DNA of 64,000 nucleotides from a virus (lineage: Duplodnaviria > Caudoviricetes): IMG/VR virus record IMGVR_UViG_3300020450_000008; one strand, 5' to 3'. Both the position numbers and the translations under genes were made by a program. The notes under the pieces were generated by a model. That model saw nothing but the letters and a program-made list of their open reading frames with translations, did no database searches and was not told the DNA's origin. Numbering within the stretch: position 1 is the first letter of the stretch; each line of letters begins with the position of its first letter. Of this stretch, positions 3,991 to 16,803 are shown in pieces.

Positions 3991-4100
3991 CATTTATGTA
4001 ACAGCATAAATTATTTCACTTTTATTGAAAATAATCGTTTACATTTATTCTTTTTTATAGTATATTAGTTATATAAGGTAATTAATAAGGAAGATAAATG
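3986..4100 (+). promoter_or_regulatory. Early promoter cassette copy 1: TGTAAC-N5-TGTAAC site, A/T tract, TTTACA-N17-TATATT, TAAGGAAGATAAATG RBS
   Basis: Near-identical blocks at about 13514-13653 and 20564-20691. Confidence 0.8.
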
Positions 4101-4469
4101 ATTTCATCAGAAAGAAAATACAACAAATTCTCAAAGACTTTGTCACCTAAGCTAGCTTCATGGTTAGCTGACGATCACACTTACATTTCAGATACTAAGA
4201 GCAAGTTAGCAGCTCGTGCCAAGAGGCGTCAAGATGCTTTAGCTGATTGGGATCTTCATTTAGTTACTTTCAACAAGATGTTCATCGAATGGGCAGTTGA
4301 AAATTCTGTTAGTGATGAACTTGGTGAAAAGATCTCATTCGCAGTGAGTGACTCTCAGTTAGAACCAATCACTAAAGATTACAGAGTTGATTGGAGATTG
4401 AAGAAAGAATTTCCTGAAGTTGATTGGGAAGTTAAGACCAAAGAATATTTAGATGGAGGATTATATTAA
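4098..4469 (+). CDS. Hypothetical early protein
   Basis: ORF with strong RBS directly after an early promoter. Confidence 0.7.
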   Translation: MISSERKYNKFSKTLSPKLASWLADDHTYISDTKSKLAARAKRRQDALADWDLHLVTFNKMFIEWAVENSVSDELGEKISFAVSDSQLEPITKDYRVDWRLKKEFPEVDWEVKTKEYLDGGLY

Positions 4470-4651
4470 TGTTATATTATGATGTATTTAATGAAAAAGT
4501 TGGAACAATAAGTAGCTTTACTTCTCTCGAAGAAGCACAAAAGTCAGCTAAAAAATATGCAAAGCAAATGAATCATTACTTTGTTATATTCAAGAGATTC
4601 CCTAACGGTTCTCAAGGACTTGTTAAGTGGGTCTTCCCGAGGAAAAAATAA
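4469..4651 (+). CDS. Hypothetical protein
   Basis: TAATG-coupled to the upstream ORF; GGAGG RBS. Confidence 0.6.
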   Translation: MLYYDVFNEKVGTISSFTSLEEAQKSAKKYAKQMNHYFVIFKRFPNGSQGLVKWVFPRKK

Positions 4652-4860
4652 TGATTAGAGAATATCTTTCATATGTTGTTCTTGCAGTCTTTGCGTTTGG
4701 CTGGATGGATATAGGATTTGGTCCACAATGGACTTGGTGGTATTTAATTGCATATTTAGGCGGTGGAGTTTAATGGATAGAAACCCTACAGAATTTGAAG
4801 CGTTATTAGTTATAATGGTAAGTTCAGTTGTAATAACAGTCGTATTGAATGCAGTAGTCT

Positions 4861-5268
4861 ATGCTTTTATCGGTTAATAAAGTTCCAAAGAAACTTGGTT
4901 CAGATACTTTAAACAAAGTATTGGACTTTGCTGAAAAATATCTAAAGTTAAATCCAAAATTAGATATTCATATTGACTTTATAAAAACTAAAAAGTTTCT
5001 AGGTCAATATGAAGGCATTGATGAACATGGTGAAACACACTTTATAGATATAAATGAAACTCAAAGTCAAGAAGACATTATTAGATCTATATTTCATGAG
5101 TTAGTTCATGTAAGACAGACTGATGATGGAGATCTATCATTAGATGGAAATAGTTGGAAAGGCTTTTTGTATAGAACTAAAGAAATGGAAGTAGACTATG
5201 ATCATCTTCCATGGGAAAAAGAAGCGGCTGAATTAGAAGAAACAATGTGGAGAACTTGGAATGCCTGA
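4861..5268 (+). CDS. HExxH zinc metallopeptidase-like protein
   Basis: IFHELVHVRQ followed by LPWEKEA (third ligand), a common phage family. Confidence 0.7.
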   Translation: MLLSVNKVPKKLGSDTLNKVLDFAEKYLKLNPKLDIHIDFIKTKKFLGQYEGIDEHGETHFIDINETQSQEDIIRSIFHELVHVRQTDDGDLSLDGNSWKGFLYRTKEMEVDYDHLPWEKEAAELEETMWRTWNA

Positions 5269-5989
5269 AACATTTATGGAGTTTGATTCTTCCTGGCATA
5301 AAGAATATAAATCAGAAGAAGACTTTCAATGCTGGGATGCTTATCCAGAATACCGATGGTTGTTTAATAAGCTTGAAGTTTCTATGAAACTAGGATATGA
5401 TTGTGGGCCTGCAGGAGTTCCTATAACTAAAGCTGGTAACTATATTATACGACCAACATATAATTTATATGGTATGGGCATAGGTGCGCATAAGAAGTAT
5501 CTAGACCCTGATAAGCATGGTGACGATATGGTTCATCACAAACATATTCCTCCTGGATATTTTTGGTGTGAATGGATTACTGGAAAACATCATAGTATTG
5601 ATTTTATGAAACAAGACGACAAATGGGTTCCTTTTAGCGCAATGATAGGTCATCATTATGGAGAAGACAATCTTGTAAAATTTAAAGAATGGGAAGTCAT
5701 AGAACCGGAATTTGAGTTACCAGATTGGCTTCATTCTGTAGAAACTGAAAGATATTTAAATATTGAAAGCAAAGATGATAAGATCATAGAAGTACATCTA
5801 AGAAGTGGTAATGATCATATATGGAATCTTAATGTAGGTTCTAAAGTATATCCAGTATGGGAAGGTGATGATTATAAAGAACTTGAACACCTTGAATTTG
5901 TAGGAAATATGCATTCAGAATCATTTAAATATCAGGCTGATGGGCATTTATCTGATTTAAGATTAGGTTACTATATAGATTCTGTATAA
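5261..5989 (+). CDS. Conserved phage protein, possibly ATP-grasp-like
   Basis: IIRPTYNLYGMG, WCEWITG and KIIEVHLR resemble ATP-grasp elements. Confidence 0.45.
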   Translation: MPETFMEFDSSWHKEYKSEEDFQCWDAYPEYRWLFNKLEVSMKLGYDCGPAGVPITKAGNYIIRPTYNLYGMGIGAHKKYLDPDKHGDDMVHHKHIPPGYFWCEWITGKHHSIDFMKQDDKWVPFSAMIGHHYGEDNLVKFKEWEVIEPEFELPDWLHSVETERYLNIESKDDKIIEVHLRSGNDHIWNLNVGSKVYPVWEGDDYKELEHLEFVGNMHSESFKYQADGHLSDLRLGYYIDSV

Positions 5990-5992
5990 ATA
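5985..5992 (+). promoter_or_regulatory. T4-type late promoter TATAAATA
   Basis: Exact gp55 consensus 6 nt upstream of the ATG at 5998. Confidence 0.75.
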
Positions 5993-5997
5993 GACTT

Positions 5998-6519
5998 ATG
6001 TTAACATTTAAAACATATTTAAGAGAATCATATACTAATTGGAAACATGAAGAGCCAGTAAAGTATTCTAAGCATCTCGAAAAAACATTTGGTAAACCAG
6101 ATGAAATTACCGATAGTCAAACTATTTGGTATAATAAAGATGGTTTTAAAAGAATAGTCGTTAAAGACGAATATATTCTACACGCTTCACCTGCTCCACA
6201 TTATGACTTTGTATATTGTTACGTTGATTTACAAGTGCCAGAAGAAATGGCAACAGATCTTGCTAAATCAAGTGGCAGTATCATGATTGACTTCTTAAAA
6301 GGGGAAGTTGGAGCAAGATGCTCTTCTACTACAGCCAATGCAACTACAATAAACTATTGTTTAGATGTTGTATCAGGTAGAGTCAAGCCTTCAAAAGCTG
6401 AGTATGAAAAAAGAATACTTGGAATGAAGAAGATGTTTTCTACTGGCAAAAAGTATGAACTTGATTGGTGGCCTGACGAAACAAGTGACGCTGATCCTAA
6501 GAATCCATACTACAAATGA
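5998..6519 (+). CDS. Hypothetical late protein
   Basis: 173-aa ORF after a late promoter; N-terminal 'LTFKTYLRE' style typical of T4-like late small proteins. Confidence 0.7.
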   Translation: MLTFKTYLRESYTNWKHEEPVKYSKHLEKTFGKPDEITDSQTIWYNKDGFKRIVVKDEYILHASPAPHYDFVYCYVDLQVPEEMATDLAKSSGSIMIDFLKGEVGARCSSTTANATTINYCLDVVSGRVKPSKAEYEKRILGMKKMFSTGKKYELDWWPDETSDADPKNPYYK

Positions 6520-6836
6520 TTTTCAAATTCAAGCAGTTTATTGACCTAGAAGAAAACTCTAAGTGTCCTCCAGGATACAAATATGATCCTGAGTTAAAGA
6601 TGTGTATCGATAAAAATTACAAAAGATCAGTAATGTATAGACCATACTTTGGTAGATACTTAAGTACACAGCAGCCAAAACAAGAACAACCACCAAAGAA
6701 AAATGGTAATGGAAATGGAAATGGCAGTCCAAAAAATGGCAATGGCAATAATGGCAATGGAAATGGTGGGAACGGCAACGGGAACGGTGGTGGTAATGGC
6801 GGAGGAGCCGGCGGCGGAAATGGCGCAGGTGCTTAA
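6516..6836 (+). CDS. Hypothetical protein with CPPG..C motif and Gly/Asn-rich tail
   Basis: ATGA overlap with the upstream gene; low-complexity (NG)n C-terminus at about 6700-6833. Confidence 0.65.
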
Positions 6837-6841
6837 ATGAT

Positions 6842-7339
6842 ATGCATGAAGAACTTCCAGAAATAAGTCTCGCAGGAGCGAACAATAAAGGTTATATACT
6901 TTCAACCGTTGAAGATGTTATCAACTGGTCAAGAACAGGCAGTCTTTATTGGATGACATTCGGTCTAGCATGTTGTGCTGTTGAAATGATGCATGCTTCG
7001 ACTCCGAGATATGATCTTGAAAGATTTGGATCTATTCCAAGAGGTAGTCCTAGACAATCAGATCTCATGATTGTTGCTGGAACTCTTACAAATAAAATGG
7101 CACCAGCTTTAAGAAAAGTTTACGATCAAATGCCTGAGCCAAGATATGTAATATCAATGGGAAGTTGTGCAAATGGTGGTGGGTATTACCATTATTCTTA
7201 TTCTGTAGTAAGAGGCTGTGATAGAATAATTCCAGTGGATATATATGTTCCAGGTTGCCCACCAAGTGCAGAAGCTTTATTATATGGAATATTACAGCTA
7301 CAAAAAAAGATTAGAAGAACTGGAACCATAAAGCGATGA
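6842..7339 (+). CDS. nuoB: NADH-quinone oxidoreductase subunit B (N2 Fe-S cluster subunit)
   Basis: [36 protein letters not shown] and YVPGCPP: all four N2 Cys ligands present. Confidence 0.97.
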
Positions 7340-8571
7340 TAAATTATTTAGCATTTATAGCTGCTATCGCTATAGCAACAGTTGCAGCATATTATTCAAT
7401 TATTGGATTGATGACAATTTTTGCAGCTGCTGCAATACCTATTGCTGTGATGGGTGGTGTACTTGAAGCTGGAAAGCTTATAACTGCCTCATGGTTATAT
7501 AATAACCGAAAAATAATTCCTTTCTTTTTAAAATCATATCTTATAACTGCCGTTGTAGTTCTTATGTTTATTACAAGCATGGGAATCTTTGGATTCTTAT
7601 CAAAAGCACATATTGAACAAACAGCAGAATCAGAAGAGAATGTCGCTAAGATGGAACAGATCGATAAAAAGATTGTTCGTCTTACAGATACAATTATGGC
7701 ATCTGAACAAGCAATAATTAAGATTGAAACCAAAGATGAAAATAAGAATGAACAAATAAACTTTCAGATTCAAACTGAAGAAGAAAGAATCGTAAAAGTT
7801 AGAGATCAGTATCAAAAATTAGTTGATGAACAAGATAAGATAATTAATAGTGCATCTGACAATTTAGATTTACTGGAGCAATTTGTAAAGGATAAAGACA
7901 CTCGATCTTTGCAAGCCTTAGTAGGAACTAAAGTTGATGGTGTATATGGTCCAGGAACTGCGGCAAGAGTAAATGAATATAGAGAAAAAGAAGAATCTAA
8001 AGTAGATCAAATTATTGCTGATGCAAGAAAAAGGATAACTAATCTTAGAGAAAGAGAACTTACTGAAATCTCTAAGAGTAATGAACTTATTGATAGACTA
8101 CGAAATAATATTAATACAGATGAACTGGATGAAGTTGCTACTAACAGGATCAAAAATTTACAAAACACTATAATCGAATCAGAAGAATCAATAACTAATC
8201 TTAATGTTGAAAAGTTTAAGTTAGAAGCAGAAGAAAGAAAATTAGAGGCTGAAGTCGGTCCAATTAAATACATTGCTGAACTAGTATATAGTGGAGAAGC
8301 AGATAGAGATGTATTAGAAGATGCTGTACGATGGGTAATACTAATTATCATATTTGTATTTGATCCATTGGCCGTTTTATTATTGATTGCTGCCAATATT
8401 GGTTGGGAAAAAGAAAGAGAAGAAAAAATTAAAAAGATTGGAAGATCCGAAAACAGAGTTGCTAAAGACGGAAAACTAGTTGATGCAGTAAAAATAGATG
8501 AAGAAGAAAAAGTACCCCCACAGAAAAAGTTAACTGTAAAAGCTGGTACAGAATGGTTTACTGATAAATAG
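7336..8571 (+). CDS. Membrane-anchored coiled-coil protein with a peptidoglycan-binding-like motif
   Basis: About 3 N-terminal TM helices, a long coiled coil, [17 protein letters not shown] (PG_binding_1-like) and a C-terminal TM. Confidence 0.6.
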
Positions 8572-8594
8572 AACTAGGTAAAACGGAGTAACTC

Positions 8595-9398
8595 ATGATA
8601 TCAGAAATGTCATTCCAAGAAAGAGCAACATTGTTTGCAACACTATCATCTATAGCATATATGGATAAAAAAGGTGCTAAAAAGGCAGCAAAGAAAATAG
8701 GATTTACCACTGTTGAGTTTTACAATAGAGATGGAGCTCAAGCATATCGATTTATGAATTCAGAAGACTTGGTGATTGCATGTAGAGGAACACAACCTAC
8801 TGAATGGAATGATATAAAAGCTGATCTAAGAGCCATACCAGTTTATGCCGAAACTATAGGTTTGGTTCATAAAGGTTTTAAAAAAGAAGTTGACGATCTG
8901 TGGCCTATGGTGTTAGAAGATCTTGAGAGAAAAGTAAATCAAGACAAAAAAGTATGGTTTACAGGACATAGTTTAGGAGCCGCAATGACAACTATTATGG
9001 CTAGTCGTTGTCAAGATGTTCATCATAATGTTTGTGAAGTGTATACCTATGGATCGCCAAGAGTTGGCTGGGGAAGATATGTTAGAAGTTTAAAGGTTAC
9101 ACATCATAGGTTTGTAAATAACAATGATATAGTAACTCGAGTTCCTTTATGGATTATGGGTTATAGACATCATGGAAGAAGACATTACTTTAATAGAAAA
9201 GGACAACTTAGCTTCTCTGATATAAGAGATAGAATTTTAGGAATGTGGGACGGTTGGAAAAGAGGAAGAATTGATTCTATAGCAGATCATGACATAGGTC
9301 AATATATTGTCCATTGCGAAGATATACCAGCTCATAAAGAAATAAGACACAAAATGGGTGTATGGTCTAAGTTTAAAAAGCGGTCTACAAGAAAGTAA
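8595..9398 (+). CDS. Lipase class 3 (alpha/beta hydrolase)
   Basis: RGT, VHKGF, GHSLG nucleophile elbow, YGSPRVG, NDIVTRVP, ADH. Confidence 0.9.
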   Translation: MISEMSFQERATLFATLSSIAYMDKKGAKKAAKKIGFTTVEFYNRDGAQAYRFMNSEDLVIACRGTQPTEWNDIKADLRAIPVYAETIGLVHKGFKKEVDDLWPMVLEDLERKVNQDKKVWFTGHSLGAAMTTIMASRCQDVHHNVCEVYTYGSPRVGWGRYVRSLKVTHHRFVNNNDIVTRVPLWIMGYRHHGRRHYFNRKGQLSFSDIRDRILGMWDGWKRGRIDSIADHDIGQYIVHCEDIPAHKEIRHKMGVWSKFKKRSTRK

Positions 9399-9580
9399 TG
9401 AAAGAATTGGTTTTTATATTAATGGTTATGAATGGCGATCAACTTGAAGGTGAGATAGTTTATCCAAACATGGATAAATGTAAATGGTATGCTGAAAAAA
9501 TTAATAAACAACAAACAAGTTTAATTCTTAATTATTCAGCATGGTGCAAACCAGTAGTAAGAGATAAGGTGGAAGAATAA
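9398..9580 (+). CDS. Hypothetical small protein (two Cys)
   Basis: TAATG-coupled ORF. Confidence 0.55.
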   Translation: MKELVFILMVMNGDQLEGEIVYPNMDKCKWYAEKINKQQTSLILNYSAWCKPVVRDKVEE

Positions 9581-9681: not shown

Positions 9682-9710
9682 TTTACAACCTGTGAAAAAT
9701 ATGGTATAAT
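9682..9710 (+). promoter_or_regulatory. Sigma70-type promoter TTTACA-N17-TATAAT
   Basis: Exact hexamers at 9682-9687 and 9705-9710. Confidence 0.75.
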
Positions 9711-10942: not shown

Positions 10943-11392
10943 ATGGGTATGGGCATGCACGGAAATAATCATCCTCAGGGAAAGAGGACAGTCATTCTTA
11001 TGGTCGTCTTATGTCTATTTCTACACTTTCTTCTTATTCCTATTTGGATGGGATTAGTATTTGCTAATGCGCATGAATCAAATTCTTTTTTAAAAGGACC
11101 TATGTACACTAAAGTTGTTACCTGTGATACATTTGACAATATAACACAAAAAATGGTACTAGTTAATCAGTTTCCTTTCCTTTGGGCTGATGGGAATAGT
11201 TTAAGACCAGATGGAAACCCGTTAGACTCTACATTCATAATAGCATATGATAATAAAGAAAAAAAATGGACTATATTGGAAACATTTACAGGACCAACTG
11301 GAGCACTTATAGCATGTATATTAGGTGAAGGCAATAAAAAAATTAATATTAATCCTGAAATATTATTACCAATACCAGGAACAGACTTATGA
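10943..11392 (+). CDS. Hypothetical exported/membrane protein
   Basis: N-terminal hydrophobic helix, two Cys. Confidence 0.6.
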   Translation: MGMGMHGNNHPQGKRTVILMVVLCLFLHFLLIPIWMGLVFANAHESNSFLKGPMYTKVVTCDTFDNITQKMVLVNQFPFLWADGNSLRPDGNPLDSTFIIAYDNKEKKWTILETFTGPTGALIACILGEGNKKININPEILLPIPGTDL

Positions 11393-11616
11393 TAGATTAT
11401 CCAGATGGATTTTCAAATGAATGGCGCGAATATACAATGAAAGATAAAGATTTTCCAGAAACTATTATATATACAGATAAGGAGCGAATAGCTTGTACGG
11501 GCGAAGCTAATGATCACCCTCGAGTATATTATACTGTTCCGGAAGTAGGTTTTGTAGTATGCGGGTATTGTGACATTAAATTTGCAAGGAAAAAGCCTGA
11601 TGAACTCAGTGGATAG
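11389..11616 (+). CDS. zf-CHCC zinc-finger protein (NDUFS6/NUMM-like)
   Basis: IACTGEANDHPRVY...VVCGYCDIKF: C-x8-HPxVY-x-CxYC pattern. Confidence 0.85.
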   Translation: MIDYPDGFSNEWREYTMKDKDFPETIIYTDKERIACTGEANDHPRVYYTVPEVGFVVCGYCDIKFARKKPDELSG

Positions 11617-11969: not shown

Positions 11970-12172
11970 CTGGATTTGAAATATTTACAATTATATGTTT
12001 TATCGCTACTATAGTGATTGTGCCTGTTTATATGTGGTTACTATACAATATTAAAAACTCTTGGACATCTAATTCACATGATACTCAAGGTGGTAGTATG
12101 ACAATACTTGAAGGAGATGATCAGCCAAAAGTAACTTGGATGGATCCCTTAATTAAAAAAATCAAGAAGTAA
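11966..12172 (+). CDS. Hypothetical single-TM protein
   Basis: N-terminal hydrophobic helix; ATGA overlap. Confidence 0.55.
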   Translation: MTGFEIFTIICFIATIVIVPVYMWLLYNIKNSWTSNSHDTQGGSMTILEGDDQPKVTWMDPLIKKIKK

Positions 12173-12900
12173 TGACAACCTTTATATCCGCTCCGTTCGG
12201 AAACTATCTTAAATTTAAGAATGCTGTAAGTGTGACTGGTACTTGGACATATAAACCGAGACCAGGACTATTCAAACAAGTTGTAAAGACATTAAGATAT
12301 ACTAGAAATGGTTGGCGTAATAAAATAGGTTTAAGAAATCGTGGAATAGAGTATGGCATACAAAAAACTAACTTTAATGAAGTTTTAAGTATTGCTGCGA
12401 TAAGTGAACACGATTGGATAAATTTAGAATCAATAGTTCCACAAAGCCAAAGTGTTGAGTTAAATATTAGTTGTCCTAATCTTGATACTCATCAAGATAC
12501 TACAATGTTCAATGGATTTGATTTATGGCCAACTAAACATAGGAAATGGTGTATTGTTAAAGTTCCACCAACCGCATCATTTGCACTACTAGATAGTATA
12601 GTGAGACAAGGATTTACACAGATTCATGCCAGTAATACATTACCGACTGAAAAAGGTGGTTTAAGTGGAGCCATATTGCTACCACATACTCGAAGAATAA
12701 TTAAACACCTGAAAACTGAATATGGCCATGTAGAAGTTATTGCTGGTGGTGGAATCAAAGAAGCATGGCATGCTGAATTTTATAAAGATTTAGGTGCAGA
12801 TCATTTTAGTATCGGCACCGCTTGTTTTAATCCCTTTAAAGTATGGAGAACAGTGAATGAGATTAATGGAGACCCTTCGTTCGGAGTACATCAAACCTAG
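12172..12900 (+). CDS. pyrD: Dihydroorotate dehydrogenase-like FMN TIM barrel (family 1, short)
   Basis: ELNISCPN catalytic-Cys loop, IVKVPP, ASNT, GGLSG, IAGGGI, GADHFSIGT. Confidence 0.75.
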   Translation: MTTFISAPFGNYLKFKNAVSVTGTWTYKPRPGLFKQVVKTLRYTRNGWRNKIGLRNRGIEYGIQKTNFNEVLSIAAISEHDWINLESIVPQSQSVELNISCPNLDTHQDTTMFNGFDLWPTKHRKWCIVKVPPTASFALLDSIVRQGFTQIHASNTLPTEKGGLSGAILLPHTRRIIKHLKTEYGHVEVIAGGGIKEAWHAEFYKDLGADHFSIGTACFNPFKVWRTVNEINGDPSFGVHQT

Positions 12901-14797: not shown

Positions 14798-15037
14798 ATG
14801 AGTAGTGATCCAAGAGAACCTGCAAGAGAGCAGGCTGAAGAAGCCTATCACGGTTTTATAAATTTTACAAAGTACTTTGCATATATAGCTTTAGCTGGCG
14901 TTGTTTTTGTTAGCAGCTGTAACTTCGGTGTAGATGGTACTGGAAGTAAGAGTGATCCAAGTTACTATGAAGACTACAAAGAGCGAATGGAAGAAATGAA
15001 AGAAGAAATAAAGAAGAGAAAGTATGGTGAAACTTAG
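14798..15037 (+). CDS. aa3-type cytochrome c oxidase subunit IV-like membrane protein with C-terminal extension
   Basis: YHGFINFTKY + TM + N resembles the COX4_pro_2 pattern (F/Y-x-GFI...TM...N), recalled from the Paracoccus subunit; GAGG RBS. Confidence 0.5.
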   Translation: MSSDPREPAREQAEEAYHGFINFTKYFAYIALAGVVFVSSCNFGVDGTGSKSDPSYYEDYKERMEEMKEEIKKRKYGET

Positions 15038-15741: not shown

Positions 15742-15991
15742 TCAACCATACCACAATAAAGGATTTGGCGTAGCATTTCTATGGATAATCTTAGTTGTGT
15801 TTATATTACCAGTAGTCGCCATGATGACATTAGACGATACTTTTGAAAGGTTCTTACAGAAATATGGAGATCCCTTTACTACCGAGTGTTGGGAAAATTC
15901 TAAACATGAAAAGGTTTGTAAAGGTGAAGTCGAATGCAAGTTTGGCCGTAACTTTTGTATTGATGAAGTATACAGGTGGAGAGCTAAGTGA
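15734..15991 (+). CDS. Hypothetical membrane protein
   Basis: TM helix and three Cys. Confidence 0.6.
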   Translation: MSDQPYHNKGFGVAFLWIILVVFILPVVAMMTLDDTFERFLQKYGDPFTTECWENSKHEKVCKGEVECKFGRNFCIDEVYRWRAK

Positions 15992-16803
15992 GAATCATAG
16001 CTGGCCCATGCCAACATGAGTCATACGAACAATCATTAGAAATAGCCAAACATTGTAAGAAGTGGTGTGACCACTTTGGATTTGAATATTATTTTAAAGC
16101 TTCTTATGATAAGGCTAACAGAACATCAATGCATTCAGAAAGAGGCAGAGGATTGAAGAAAACTCTTTTTGATTTGTCTAAAATTAAAAAAGAAATTGGT
16201 GTCTCTATCTTGACTGATGTACACGATAGAGAACAACTTAGAACTATTAGAGCTTTCTTTGATCATGTTGTTGATGTTATACAAATACCCGCATTTCTTT
16301 CCAGACAAACAGATCTTATTGTTGATGCCTCTCTAAGTGGTAAAATAATAAATATTAAAAAGGGGCAGTTTATGGCTCCTTGGGATATTAAAGGGATCTT
16401 GAGTAAGACGAAAGGTGCAAAAGATGTTTGGATTACCGAGCGAGGGACTTCTTTCGGATATAATCGTCTTGTCGTCGACTTTGTCGGTATGGTATCTATT
16501 CTGCGCGATCTTGGGAACGCCTGTGTCTTCGACGCTACTCACTCAGTCCAGAGACCTGGAGGAGGTGGTGATAAGAGCGACGGCGATCGTGGGTACGTTC
16601 CTAGCCTTTTGCGGGCCGCAGCTGCTATTGGTGTTGAGTCGTTTTTCTTAGAGGTGCATCCAGATCCTGATAGTGCTCCAAGTGACGGGCCAAACATGGT
16701 TCCATTAGACGCTTTTTATGATATGCTTAATATGATAAACAGAACAAGTTGGAGGAACATTGCAGAAGAATACGGGAAAAGACATCCATTTCGGTCTCTT
16801 TGA
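15988..16803 (+). CDS. kdsA: 3-deoxy-D-manno-octulosonate 8-phosphate synthase
   Basis: IIAGPC, FKASYDKANRTS, QIPAFLSRQTDL, NIKKGQF, ERGTSFGY, FDATHSVQ, EVHPDPDSAPSDG; GTG start. Confidence 0.95.
   Translation: MRIIAGPCQHESYEQSLEIAKHCKKWCDHFGFEYYFKASYDKANRTSMHSERGRGLKKTLFDLSKIKKEIGVSILTDVHDREQLRTIRAFFDHVVDVIQIPAFLSRQTDLIVDASLSGKIINIKKGQFMAPWDIKGILSKTKGAKDVWITERGTSFGYNRLVVDFVGMVSILRDLGNACVFDATHSVQRPGGGGDKSDGDRGYVPSLLRAAAAIGVESFFLEVHPDPDSAPSDGPNMVPLDAFYDMLNMINRTSWRNIAEEYGKRHPFRSL

Follow-up and report, generated by a model that had tools for sequence, protein, structure and literature searches.

The window analysed here, a stretch of 64,000 nt of viral DNA (IMG/VR record IMGVR_UViG_3300020450_000008), comes from a T4-like myovirus. 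Genes for the baseplate hub, the wedge, the tail tube and the tail-tube cap, along with related genes, are found at 28.8-46 kb, the GC content is about 33-34% and almost every gene is encoded on one strand. Among the phage genes lies a copy of nuoB (Table 1), which is located outside any nuo operon, not between nuoA and nuoC, and has phage genes as neighbours. An earlier note on this DNA, made from the letters alone, had described a solitary nuoB among phage genes, and this description holds. The note had further stated that the window contains no other core nuo gene. This was confirmed for NuoA, NuoC-J and NuoK-N, for which no homologue was detected in the 64-kb window by tblastn with NuoA and NuoC-N of the nearest cellular operon as queries (best E value 0.6), with the caveat that a gene for an NDUFS6-type zf-CHCC zinc finger is present 4 kb downstream of nuoB.

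Table 1. Position and properties of nuoB and of other features in the 64,000-nt window
Feature	Position	Strand	Properties
Sigma-70-like promoter, candidate	4038..4066	+	TTTACA-17-TATATT, 10/12 consensus matches; heads the run 4098-9580
Upstream neighbour of nuoB	6516..6836	+	106 aa, Gly/Asn-rich repeat tail; stop codon 5 nt before the nuoB start
nuoB, solitary	6842..7339	+	ORF of 165 aa; N2 ligands C44, C45, C109, C139
Downstream neighbour of nuoB	7336..8571	+	411 aa, membrane/coiled-coil protein; ATG overlaps the nuoB stop (ATGA)
Class 3 lipase/esterase	8595..9398	+	PF01764, 75 bits; phrog_21992; last large gene in the run
zf-CHCC zinc finger	11389..11616	+	75 aa; PF10276, 42 bits (cut-off 27); C36-H43-C58-C61
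DHO_dh-like TIM-barrel gene	12172-12900		242 aa, 47 bits; kept in relatives L105 and L107
Single-pass membrane protein, aa3 oxidase subunit IV-like (tentative)	14798..15037	+	79 aa; PF07835, 16 bits, below the cut-off of 22

NuoB (Nqo6/PSST) is a core subunit of complex I and, at the quinone site, holds the [4Fe-4S] cluster N2, with which the electron wire ends. By its sequence, the ORF at 6842-7339 is a genuine complex-I-type NuoB: profile searches gave 101 bits for Pfam PF01058 (cut-off 27), 268 bits for the NCBIfam model NF005012 'NuoB' (cut-off 116) and 245 bits for TIGR01957 (cut-off 143). All strong NCBIfam matches are NuoB models, and the sole hydrogenase-type match, FrhG, reached 22.7 bits versus a cut-off of 245. 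Likewise, all of the best solved relatives are complex I chains. The nearest of these is NuoB from the Paracoccus denitrificans complex I (PDB 8qby_B, 311 bits), with residues 14-165 of the phage protein aligning with residues 24-175 of the Paracoccus chain. The tandem cysteines C44-C45 as well as C109 and C139 are invariant when aligned with cellular NuoB proteins and align to the ligands in 8qby_B; 118 columns are invariant in the alignment of phage and cellular proteins, among them the PGCPP motif. The protein had been put forward as a full-length NuoB with all N2 ligands. All four ligands are indeed present, and full length applies to the conserved core and not to the N-terminus, which is 12-19 residues shorter than that of the nearest cellular relatives (177-184 aa). 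The missing segment is poorly conserved and, in the operon of the donor clade described below, partly overlaps nuoA. Within the core, about eight substitutions distinguish the phage protein from those of the donor clade; they are conservative and lie inside the range of natural cellular variation. In our best reading, the phage NuoB is predicted to be a complete and catalytically competent copy.

The two sides of nuoB differ in how well they are kept among related phages. The upstream ORF with the Gly/Asn repeat has a length of 99-107 aa among relatives; L105-L109 have a cytidylyltransferase-like gene in its place, and L089 has an ORF of 67 aa. The upstream flank is the variable side of the nuoB insertion. 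At 1,560 nt upstream of nuoB, two long and independent contigs of 179 and 216 kb both come to an end, suggesting a hypervariable, assembly-breaking stretch at that place. The gene content at 4.6-6.8 kb also differs between close relatives, at about 4650-5300 and at 6516-6836. On the downstream side, the lipase gene is kept in all relatives, and the pair formed by the 411-aa gene and the lipase gene occurs with and without nuoB. In the relatives L122 and L123, a homologue of the 411-aa protein (73% identity) is followed by the lipase and nuoB is absent; it was not found anywhere on the 33- and 36-kb IMG/VR contigs of these two related phages. Because close relatives with the same flanking genes carry no nuoB, the gene is, on the sequences compared, an accessory gene of this phage lineage. 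The downstream protein, which measures 411-438 aa, has membrane segments at its N- and C-terminus, an extended coiled coil and a stretch weakly resembling peptidoglycan-binding sequences. It was considered as a dedicated partner of NuoB, an idea that we rejected, as relatives keep the 411-aa gene without nuoB. Two host-like genes were noted elsewhere in the window, coding for a Bmp/PnrA-type substrate-binding protein (905-1924, 175 bits) and a KdsA-like protein of the DAHP_synth_1 type (15988-16803, 169 bits).

The nuoB gene is part of a tightly packed, co-directional run of small non-structural genes, which spans positions 4098-9580. The motif of the candidate promoter at the head of this run is kept at the equivalent site in the relatives L099, L089 and L105, a second sigma-70-like promoter match is present at 9682-9710, and the structural genes begin 21 kb downstream. 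The earlier view that nuoB sits in an apparent late operon could not be upheld, given its place in a non-structural run behind a conserved sigma-70-like promoter and at a distance of 21 kb from the structural genes. A T4-type late motif, TATAAATA, does occur at 5985-5992, 857 nt upstream of nuoB and 13 nt before the next ATG. We rejected it as a sign of late nuoB expression: it is seen in window-type relatives only and is not conserved across relatives, and the number of such motifs in the whole window equals the chance expectation. From the arrangement of the genes and promoters, it seems more likely that the nuoB unit is expressed early and driven by the host polymerase. Among contigs from four marine RNA-type libraries, exact phage matches were confined to the genes flanking nuoB or to libraries whose RNA status was guessed. 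Over nuoB itself, contigs from these libraries are mostly cross-matches of 90-95% from cellular nuoB genes, owing to the conserved core. As cross-mapping from cellular nuoB dominates, these contigs speak neither for nor against expression of the phage nuoB.

The association of nuoB with the phage is reproduced in many assemblies. A protein identical to the NuoB of the window (P0122) is encoded on 57 contigs in Tara, ENA, JGI and NCBI data, and the same phage neighbours were found next to nuoB in all 24 of the P0122 contigs that were read, which derive from independent assemblies. The longest P0122 contigs with the same gene order, the Tara contigs TARA_SAMEA2622452 scaffold_8 and ERZ841196 NODE_10, measure 178,622 and 215,635 bp, and NuoB variants with 94-99% identity occupy the same site in related phages. 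The GC3 value of the phage nuoB is 0.194, compared with a phage mean of 0.190 +/- 0.036 (38 large window genes) and with 0.37 for nuoB of the donor clade; the codon composition of the gene is thus ameliorated to that of the phage and not to that of the donor. A chimeric assembly, which the earlier note had raised as an objection, is effectively excluded, as far as sequence data allow, by the constant phage context on at least 24 contigs and by the phage-like GC3. Public viral collections also hold nuoB genes of another kind. The IMG/VR loci L001-L003 have a GC content of 61-67% and carry nuoA-B-C-D, and the NuoB matches labelled as phage in GenBank, with identities not exceeding 57%, come from bacterial contigs or from short fragments that lack annotation (MT837756 and similar). 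L001-L003, MT837756 and similar entries probably represent cellular contamination of viral collections, and the GenBank matches, being such fragments or bacterial contigs, were rejected as phage nuoB genes. PHROGs contains no family for NuoB or for the zf-CHCC protein. A census of nuoB in IMG/VR by alignment query, limited to two patterns, returned three cellular-type contigs and nothing more.

The nearest cellular proteins (177-184 aa) share 92-94% identity with the phage NuoB over the shared part and about 90% over the full alignment. At the nucleotide level, the identity between the phage nuoB and the genes of this donor clade is 75-79%, and dS is above 1.5 or saturated. One cellular relative, P0080, comes from an assembly of about 2.1 Mb, in which a 214-kb contig bears its gene within a complete nuoA-K operon; the single-cell genome GCA_902537215.1 also belongs to the donor clade. 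Both of the maximum-likelihood trees that were calculated unite the phage copies in a single clade (SH-aLRT support 99 and 95), which is nested in a clade with the 177-184-aa cellular proteins (support 99 and 98, respectively). This joint clade is separate from Pelagibacteraceae (77-83% NuoB identity), Rhodobacterales and the other sampled alphaproteobacteria; in a search with NuoD of the donor clade, the nearest named relatives were Rhodobacterales, with 76-78% identity, and the ESM Atlas placed the clade no more precisely than in Pseudomonadota. Between phage copies, dN/dS is 0-0.10, with dS values of up to 0.6, and the phage nuoB is, judged from these ratios, kept under strong purifying selection. 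Saturated dS to the donor, a single phage clade and low dN/dS together point to one old capture that was retained by selection, and the sequence data indicate that nuoB of the window clade was acquired from a low-GC, uncultured marine alphaproteobacterium. The donor clade is probably also the host lineage of the phage. Of the outcomes that the earlier note had envisaged for a phylogeny, a phage clade or a recent host capture, the trees recovered the former, beside one cellular clade (SH-aLRT 95-99), and the dN/dS ratios it had suggested calculating revealed purifying selection. A one-off capture under relaxed selection is effectively excluded by the single phage clade, the saturated dS, dN/dS values of 0-0.10 and the presence of nuoB in a second phage lineage.

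This second lineage is represented by the IMG/VR loci L004-L007, which carry a solitary nuoB coding for 168 aa, have a GC content of 36-38% and are estimated to comprise 12-13% of a genome. Their other genes code for a tail protein (PHROG match, 216 bits), a phage helicase, an RNA ligase, a primase, DnaB, Dam and a split Pol III alpha subunit. Here, nuoB directly precedes a gene for cytochrome b (414 aa, 3/3 Pfam domains), which is followed by a gene for a 398-aa DHODH. SufBD is inserted between nuoB and these genes in one contig; in L007 (IMG/VR 3300020463_002732), nuoB is followed within the segment 7950-12566 by SufBD, full-length cytochrome b and the 398-aa DHODH, and in a relative within this lineage, genes for SufE, a 7Fe-type ferredoxin and ribosomal protein S21 and two radical SAM genes are found around nuoB. 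L007, L005 and L160 were noted as putative large phages with a cluster of respiratory and Fe-S genes. In literature searches aimed at other subjects, no description of a cytochrome b gene in a phage came up. The NuoB of the second lineage is about 93% identical to abundant cellular proteins of 174-176 aa, which are encoded in a nuoA-F operon, and in the tree it is nested in that cellular clade (support 96-97), far from the clade of the window. As it nests in a different cellular clade, the tree indicates that this second, putative phage lineage obtained its nuoB in a separate capture event, with another host clade as the source. In a third context, nuoB belongs to the window clade (97% amino acid and 87% nucleotide identity) and is found in other T4-like surroundings on 41-46 contigs. 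In the ENA contigs L169-L172, nuoB (57-569) overlaps by 4 nt with a gene for a 106-aa DUF59/FeS_assembly_P protein (566-886 of L169). A further solitary nuoB, on L173-L175 (GC content 56-58%), codes for a 169-aa protein with 85% identity, has a GC3 of 0.79 and is surrounded by wide intergenic spacers; in one of these contigs, an ATP-citrate-lyase-like gene is located nearby on the opposite strand.

Two further genes in the window might be connected to respiration. The first codes for the zf-CHCC protein, whose domain (PF10276) is that of the complex I accessory subunit NDUFS6/NUMM, and ORF 11389-11616 is, from its sequence, possibly a second complex-I-linked gene. It is about 31% identical to the zf-CHCC protein of the donor clade, where one such gene is present per genome. 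In the second phage lineage, a zf-CHCC gene is situated 12.6 kb from nuoB, so that zf-CHCC and nuoB occur together in two phage lineages. The zf-CHCC gene was also found in one nuoB-less relative and on 28 other marine viral contigs; in none of these (0/28) was nuoB detected in the flanking sequence retrieved, which extended to at most 6 kb. The presence of zf-CHCC in a nuoB-less relative and in 28 flanks without nuoB means that the two genes are not strictly coupled. No member of the zf-CHCC family was found in PHROGs or among GenBank phages. The second gene, ORF 14798-15037, has PF07835 as its sole Pfam match, and its product is 41-43% identical to membrane ORFs of 70-95 aa from the donor clade; these ORFs reach 20.4-20.6 bits with PF07835. 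A homologue of this 79-aa ORF adjoins zf-CHCC in four viral contigs (L130-L133).

Taking these data together, we propose, with a probability of roughly 0.6, that the phage nuoB is an auxiliary metabolic gene, whose product may functionally replace or supplement the host NuoB. During infection, nuoB would be transcribed together with the small non-structural genes from the host-type promoter. Once supplied with its [4Fe-4S] cluster N2, the phage NuoB would become part of the host complex I, instead of or beside the host NuoB. In this way, NADH:quinone oxidoreductase activity could be maintained as host gene expression fails, sustaining NAD+ regeneration, quinone reduction and the proton-motive force. 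Incorporation into the host complex I and a benefit to the phage are what we infer from several lines of evidence. The near-identity to the donor protein covers the whole core, including the surfaces that contact other subunits, which implies that the phage NuoB must fit and work in the host complex I, and the same conclusion is suggested by the purifying selection, by the independent capture in the second lineage and by the recurrent linkage to Fe-S assembly genes. To our knowledge, NuoB is not described as a fast-turnover subunit of bacterial complex I. One might nevertheless speculate, by analogy with D1 in photosystem II, that NuoB was chosen as a quinone-site subunit that is prone to damage or limiting. 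Cytochrome b and DHODH, which accompany nuoB in the second lineage, are also quinone-reactive, which recalls the choice of D1 by cyanophages.

The earlier note had suggested that the phage protein might replace or tune the host subunit, in analogy to psbA, or act as a dominant modulator. A psbA-like replacement fits the sequence conservation, the selection and the Fe-S linkage, whereas the undiverged catalytic core speaks against a dominant modulator. Still, the phage NuoB could enter complex I or an assembly intermediate and alter its behaviour, for example by a changed N2 potential or changed quinone kinetics, by escaping a host control mechanism or protease that acts on the N-terminal extension, or by a dominant-negative block of assembly that redirects NADH or reducing power. 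Such a function could account for the N-terminus being shorter in both lineages (165-170 versus 177-184 aa and 168 versus 174-176 aa), for the few substitutions fixed between the phage and donor clades and for the zf-CHCC (NDUFS6-like) gene in the phage, as this family is tied to late complex I assembly. However, the trimmed segment is the poorly conserved one that overlaps nuoA in the donor operon, and the substitutions are conservative and leave the cluster ligands and all motifs conserved in cellular NuoB proteins intact. In addition, the low dN/dS matches what a functional subunit should show, and the Fe-S assembly genes found alongside fit the production of a holo-protein. We therefore regard a modulatory role as unlikely, and as less likely than replacement.

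Less likely still is a stand-alone role, in which NuoB would serve as a [4Fe-4S] electron carrier outside complex I for phage redox enzymes such as the DHODH-like or radical SAM proteins. The gene is solitary in every phage context and often near redox genes: the window has a DHO_dh-like gene, and the second lineage has genes for DHODH, a ferredoxin and radical SAM enzymes. Against this, the near-identity to cellular NuoB extends over surfaces that are used only for contacts between complex I subunits, so that selection for fit has to be assumed, and the protein scores as a complex-I-type NuoB, with just 22.7 bits for a hydrogenase small subunit. Nor do we know of an isolated NuoB that is stable or functional, and we consider this role improbable. 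That nuoB is a passenger or an artefact, be it a chimera, cellular contamination or a neutral recent pickup, has a negligible probability: contaminating cellular nuoB genes do exist in public viral collections, but re-assembly from many samples in a constant phage context, the phage-like GC3, the monophyletic phage clade with saturated dS to the donor and low dN/dS, and the second independent capture all argue against it.

Replacement or supplementation of the host NuoB being the preferred reading, a broader idea can be put forward, which we hold tentatively and consider somewhat less probable than its opposite. Phages of abundant non-photosynthetic marine alphaproteobacteria might carry a dispersed 'respiratory repair kit' for damage-prone, quinone-reactive parts of the respiratory chain, which was assembled independently by different lineages. 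Its contents would be NuoB, the bc1 cytochrome b and the quinone-linked DHODH, joined by the NDUFS6-type zinc finger and the oxidase subunit IV-like protein, as well as by SufBD, SufE and DUF59 proteins.

Single genes for complex I-type subunits have precedents among cyanophages. Alperovitch-Lavy and colleagues reportedly described NDH-1 subunit genes of cyanophages in 2011. Cyanophages such as P-TIM40, P-TIM68 and S-SCSM2R carry single NDH-1 subunit genes, namely ndhI, ndhD and ndhP (PMC10452541, PMC12801897). As in these cases, the phage studied here is a marine T4-like phage with a lone complex-I-type subunit gene, whose product has intact Fe-S ligands and can be read as support for electron transport. 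In contrast, the cyanophage genes code for equivalents of NuoI, NuoM and NdhP in the photosynthetic NDH-1, whereas the gene in the window is of the NuoB/NdhK type, belongs to respiratory complex I and stems from a non-photosynthetic alphaproteobacterial source. The likeness to psbA and psbD, the cyanophage genes for D1 and D2, is that purifying selection acts on a phage copy of a core subunit from the quinone site of a membrane complex for energy conversion in the host, and that this copy hardly differs from the host protein. However, D1 has a rapid turnover and the expression and incorporation of phage D1 have been demonstrated, whereas the phage NuoB is known here from its sequence; the complex and the host group differ as well. 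Compared with cellular NuoB (PDB 8QBY chain B), the phage protein has a core that aligns end to end (311 bits) and the same N2 ligands and motifs, but its gene stands alone without a nuo operon, codes for a shorter N-terminus and has the codon composition of a phage.

Respiratory genes have also been noted in marine viromes. Reads annotated as 'NADH dehydrogenase I subunit' were abundant in viral fractions from the Indian Ocean, and phages of heterotrophs were suggested as a possible source (Williamson et al., 2012, PMC3474794), and electron-transport genes were reported in viromes by Hurwitz et al. (2013, PMC4053976). These reports (PMC3474794, PMC4053976) rest on counts of reads or short contigs, without subunit identity, genome context, phylogeny or selection tests, whereas nuoB is here anchored on T4-like contigs of up to 215 kb and its origin is traced. 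A survey of pelagimyophages (PMC7029224) does not mention such a gene, and a phage nuoB is described nowhere in the literature that we searched.

Auxiliary genes that sustain the energy conversion of the host are known from cyanophages, where they act in photosynthesis, but are barely documented at the level of genes and genomes for phages of the heterotrophs that dominate respiration in the ocean. To this known kind of phage gene, the present work adds a convergent case from phages of non-photosynthetic hosts, which is anchored in genomes and traced by phylogeny. The phage nuoB can serve as a marker that links an abundant group of uncultured T4-like phages to one uncultured alphaproteobacterial clade, and the end-to-end similarity to the Paracoccus NuoB (311 bits) makes the phage protein testable in an existing genetic system. 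Given that an intact and conserved nuoB was captured independently a second time, phages of non-photosynthetic bacteria probably support the respiration of their hosts, by analogy with the way in which cyanophages sustain photosynthesis. Two captures, a nearly unchanged NuoB and the links to Fe-S assembly, cytochrome b and DHODH indicate that, in these hosts, respiratory electron flow is a limiting factor for phage production. If the idea of a repair kit is true, it would be the respiratory counterpart of the psbA/psbD/ndh/PTOX strategy of cyanophages.
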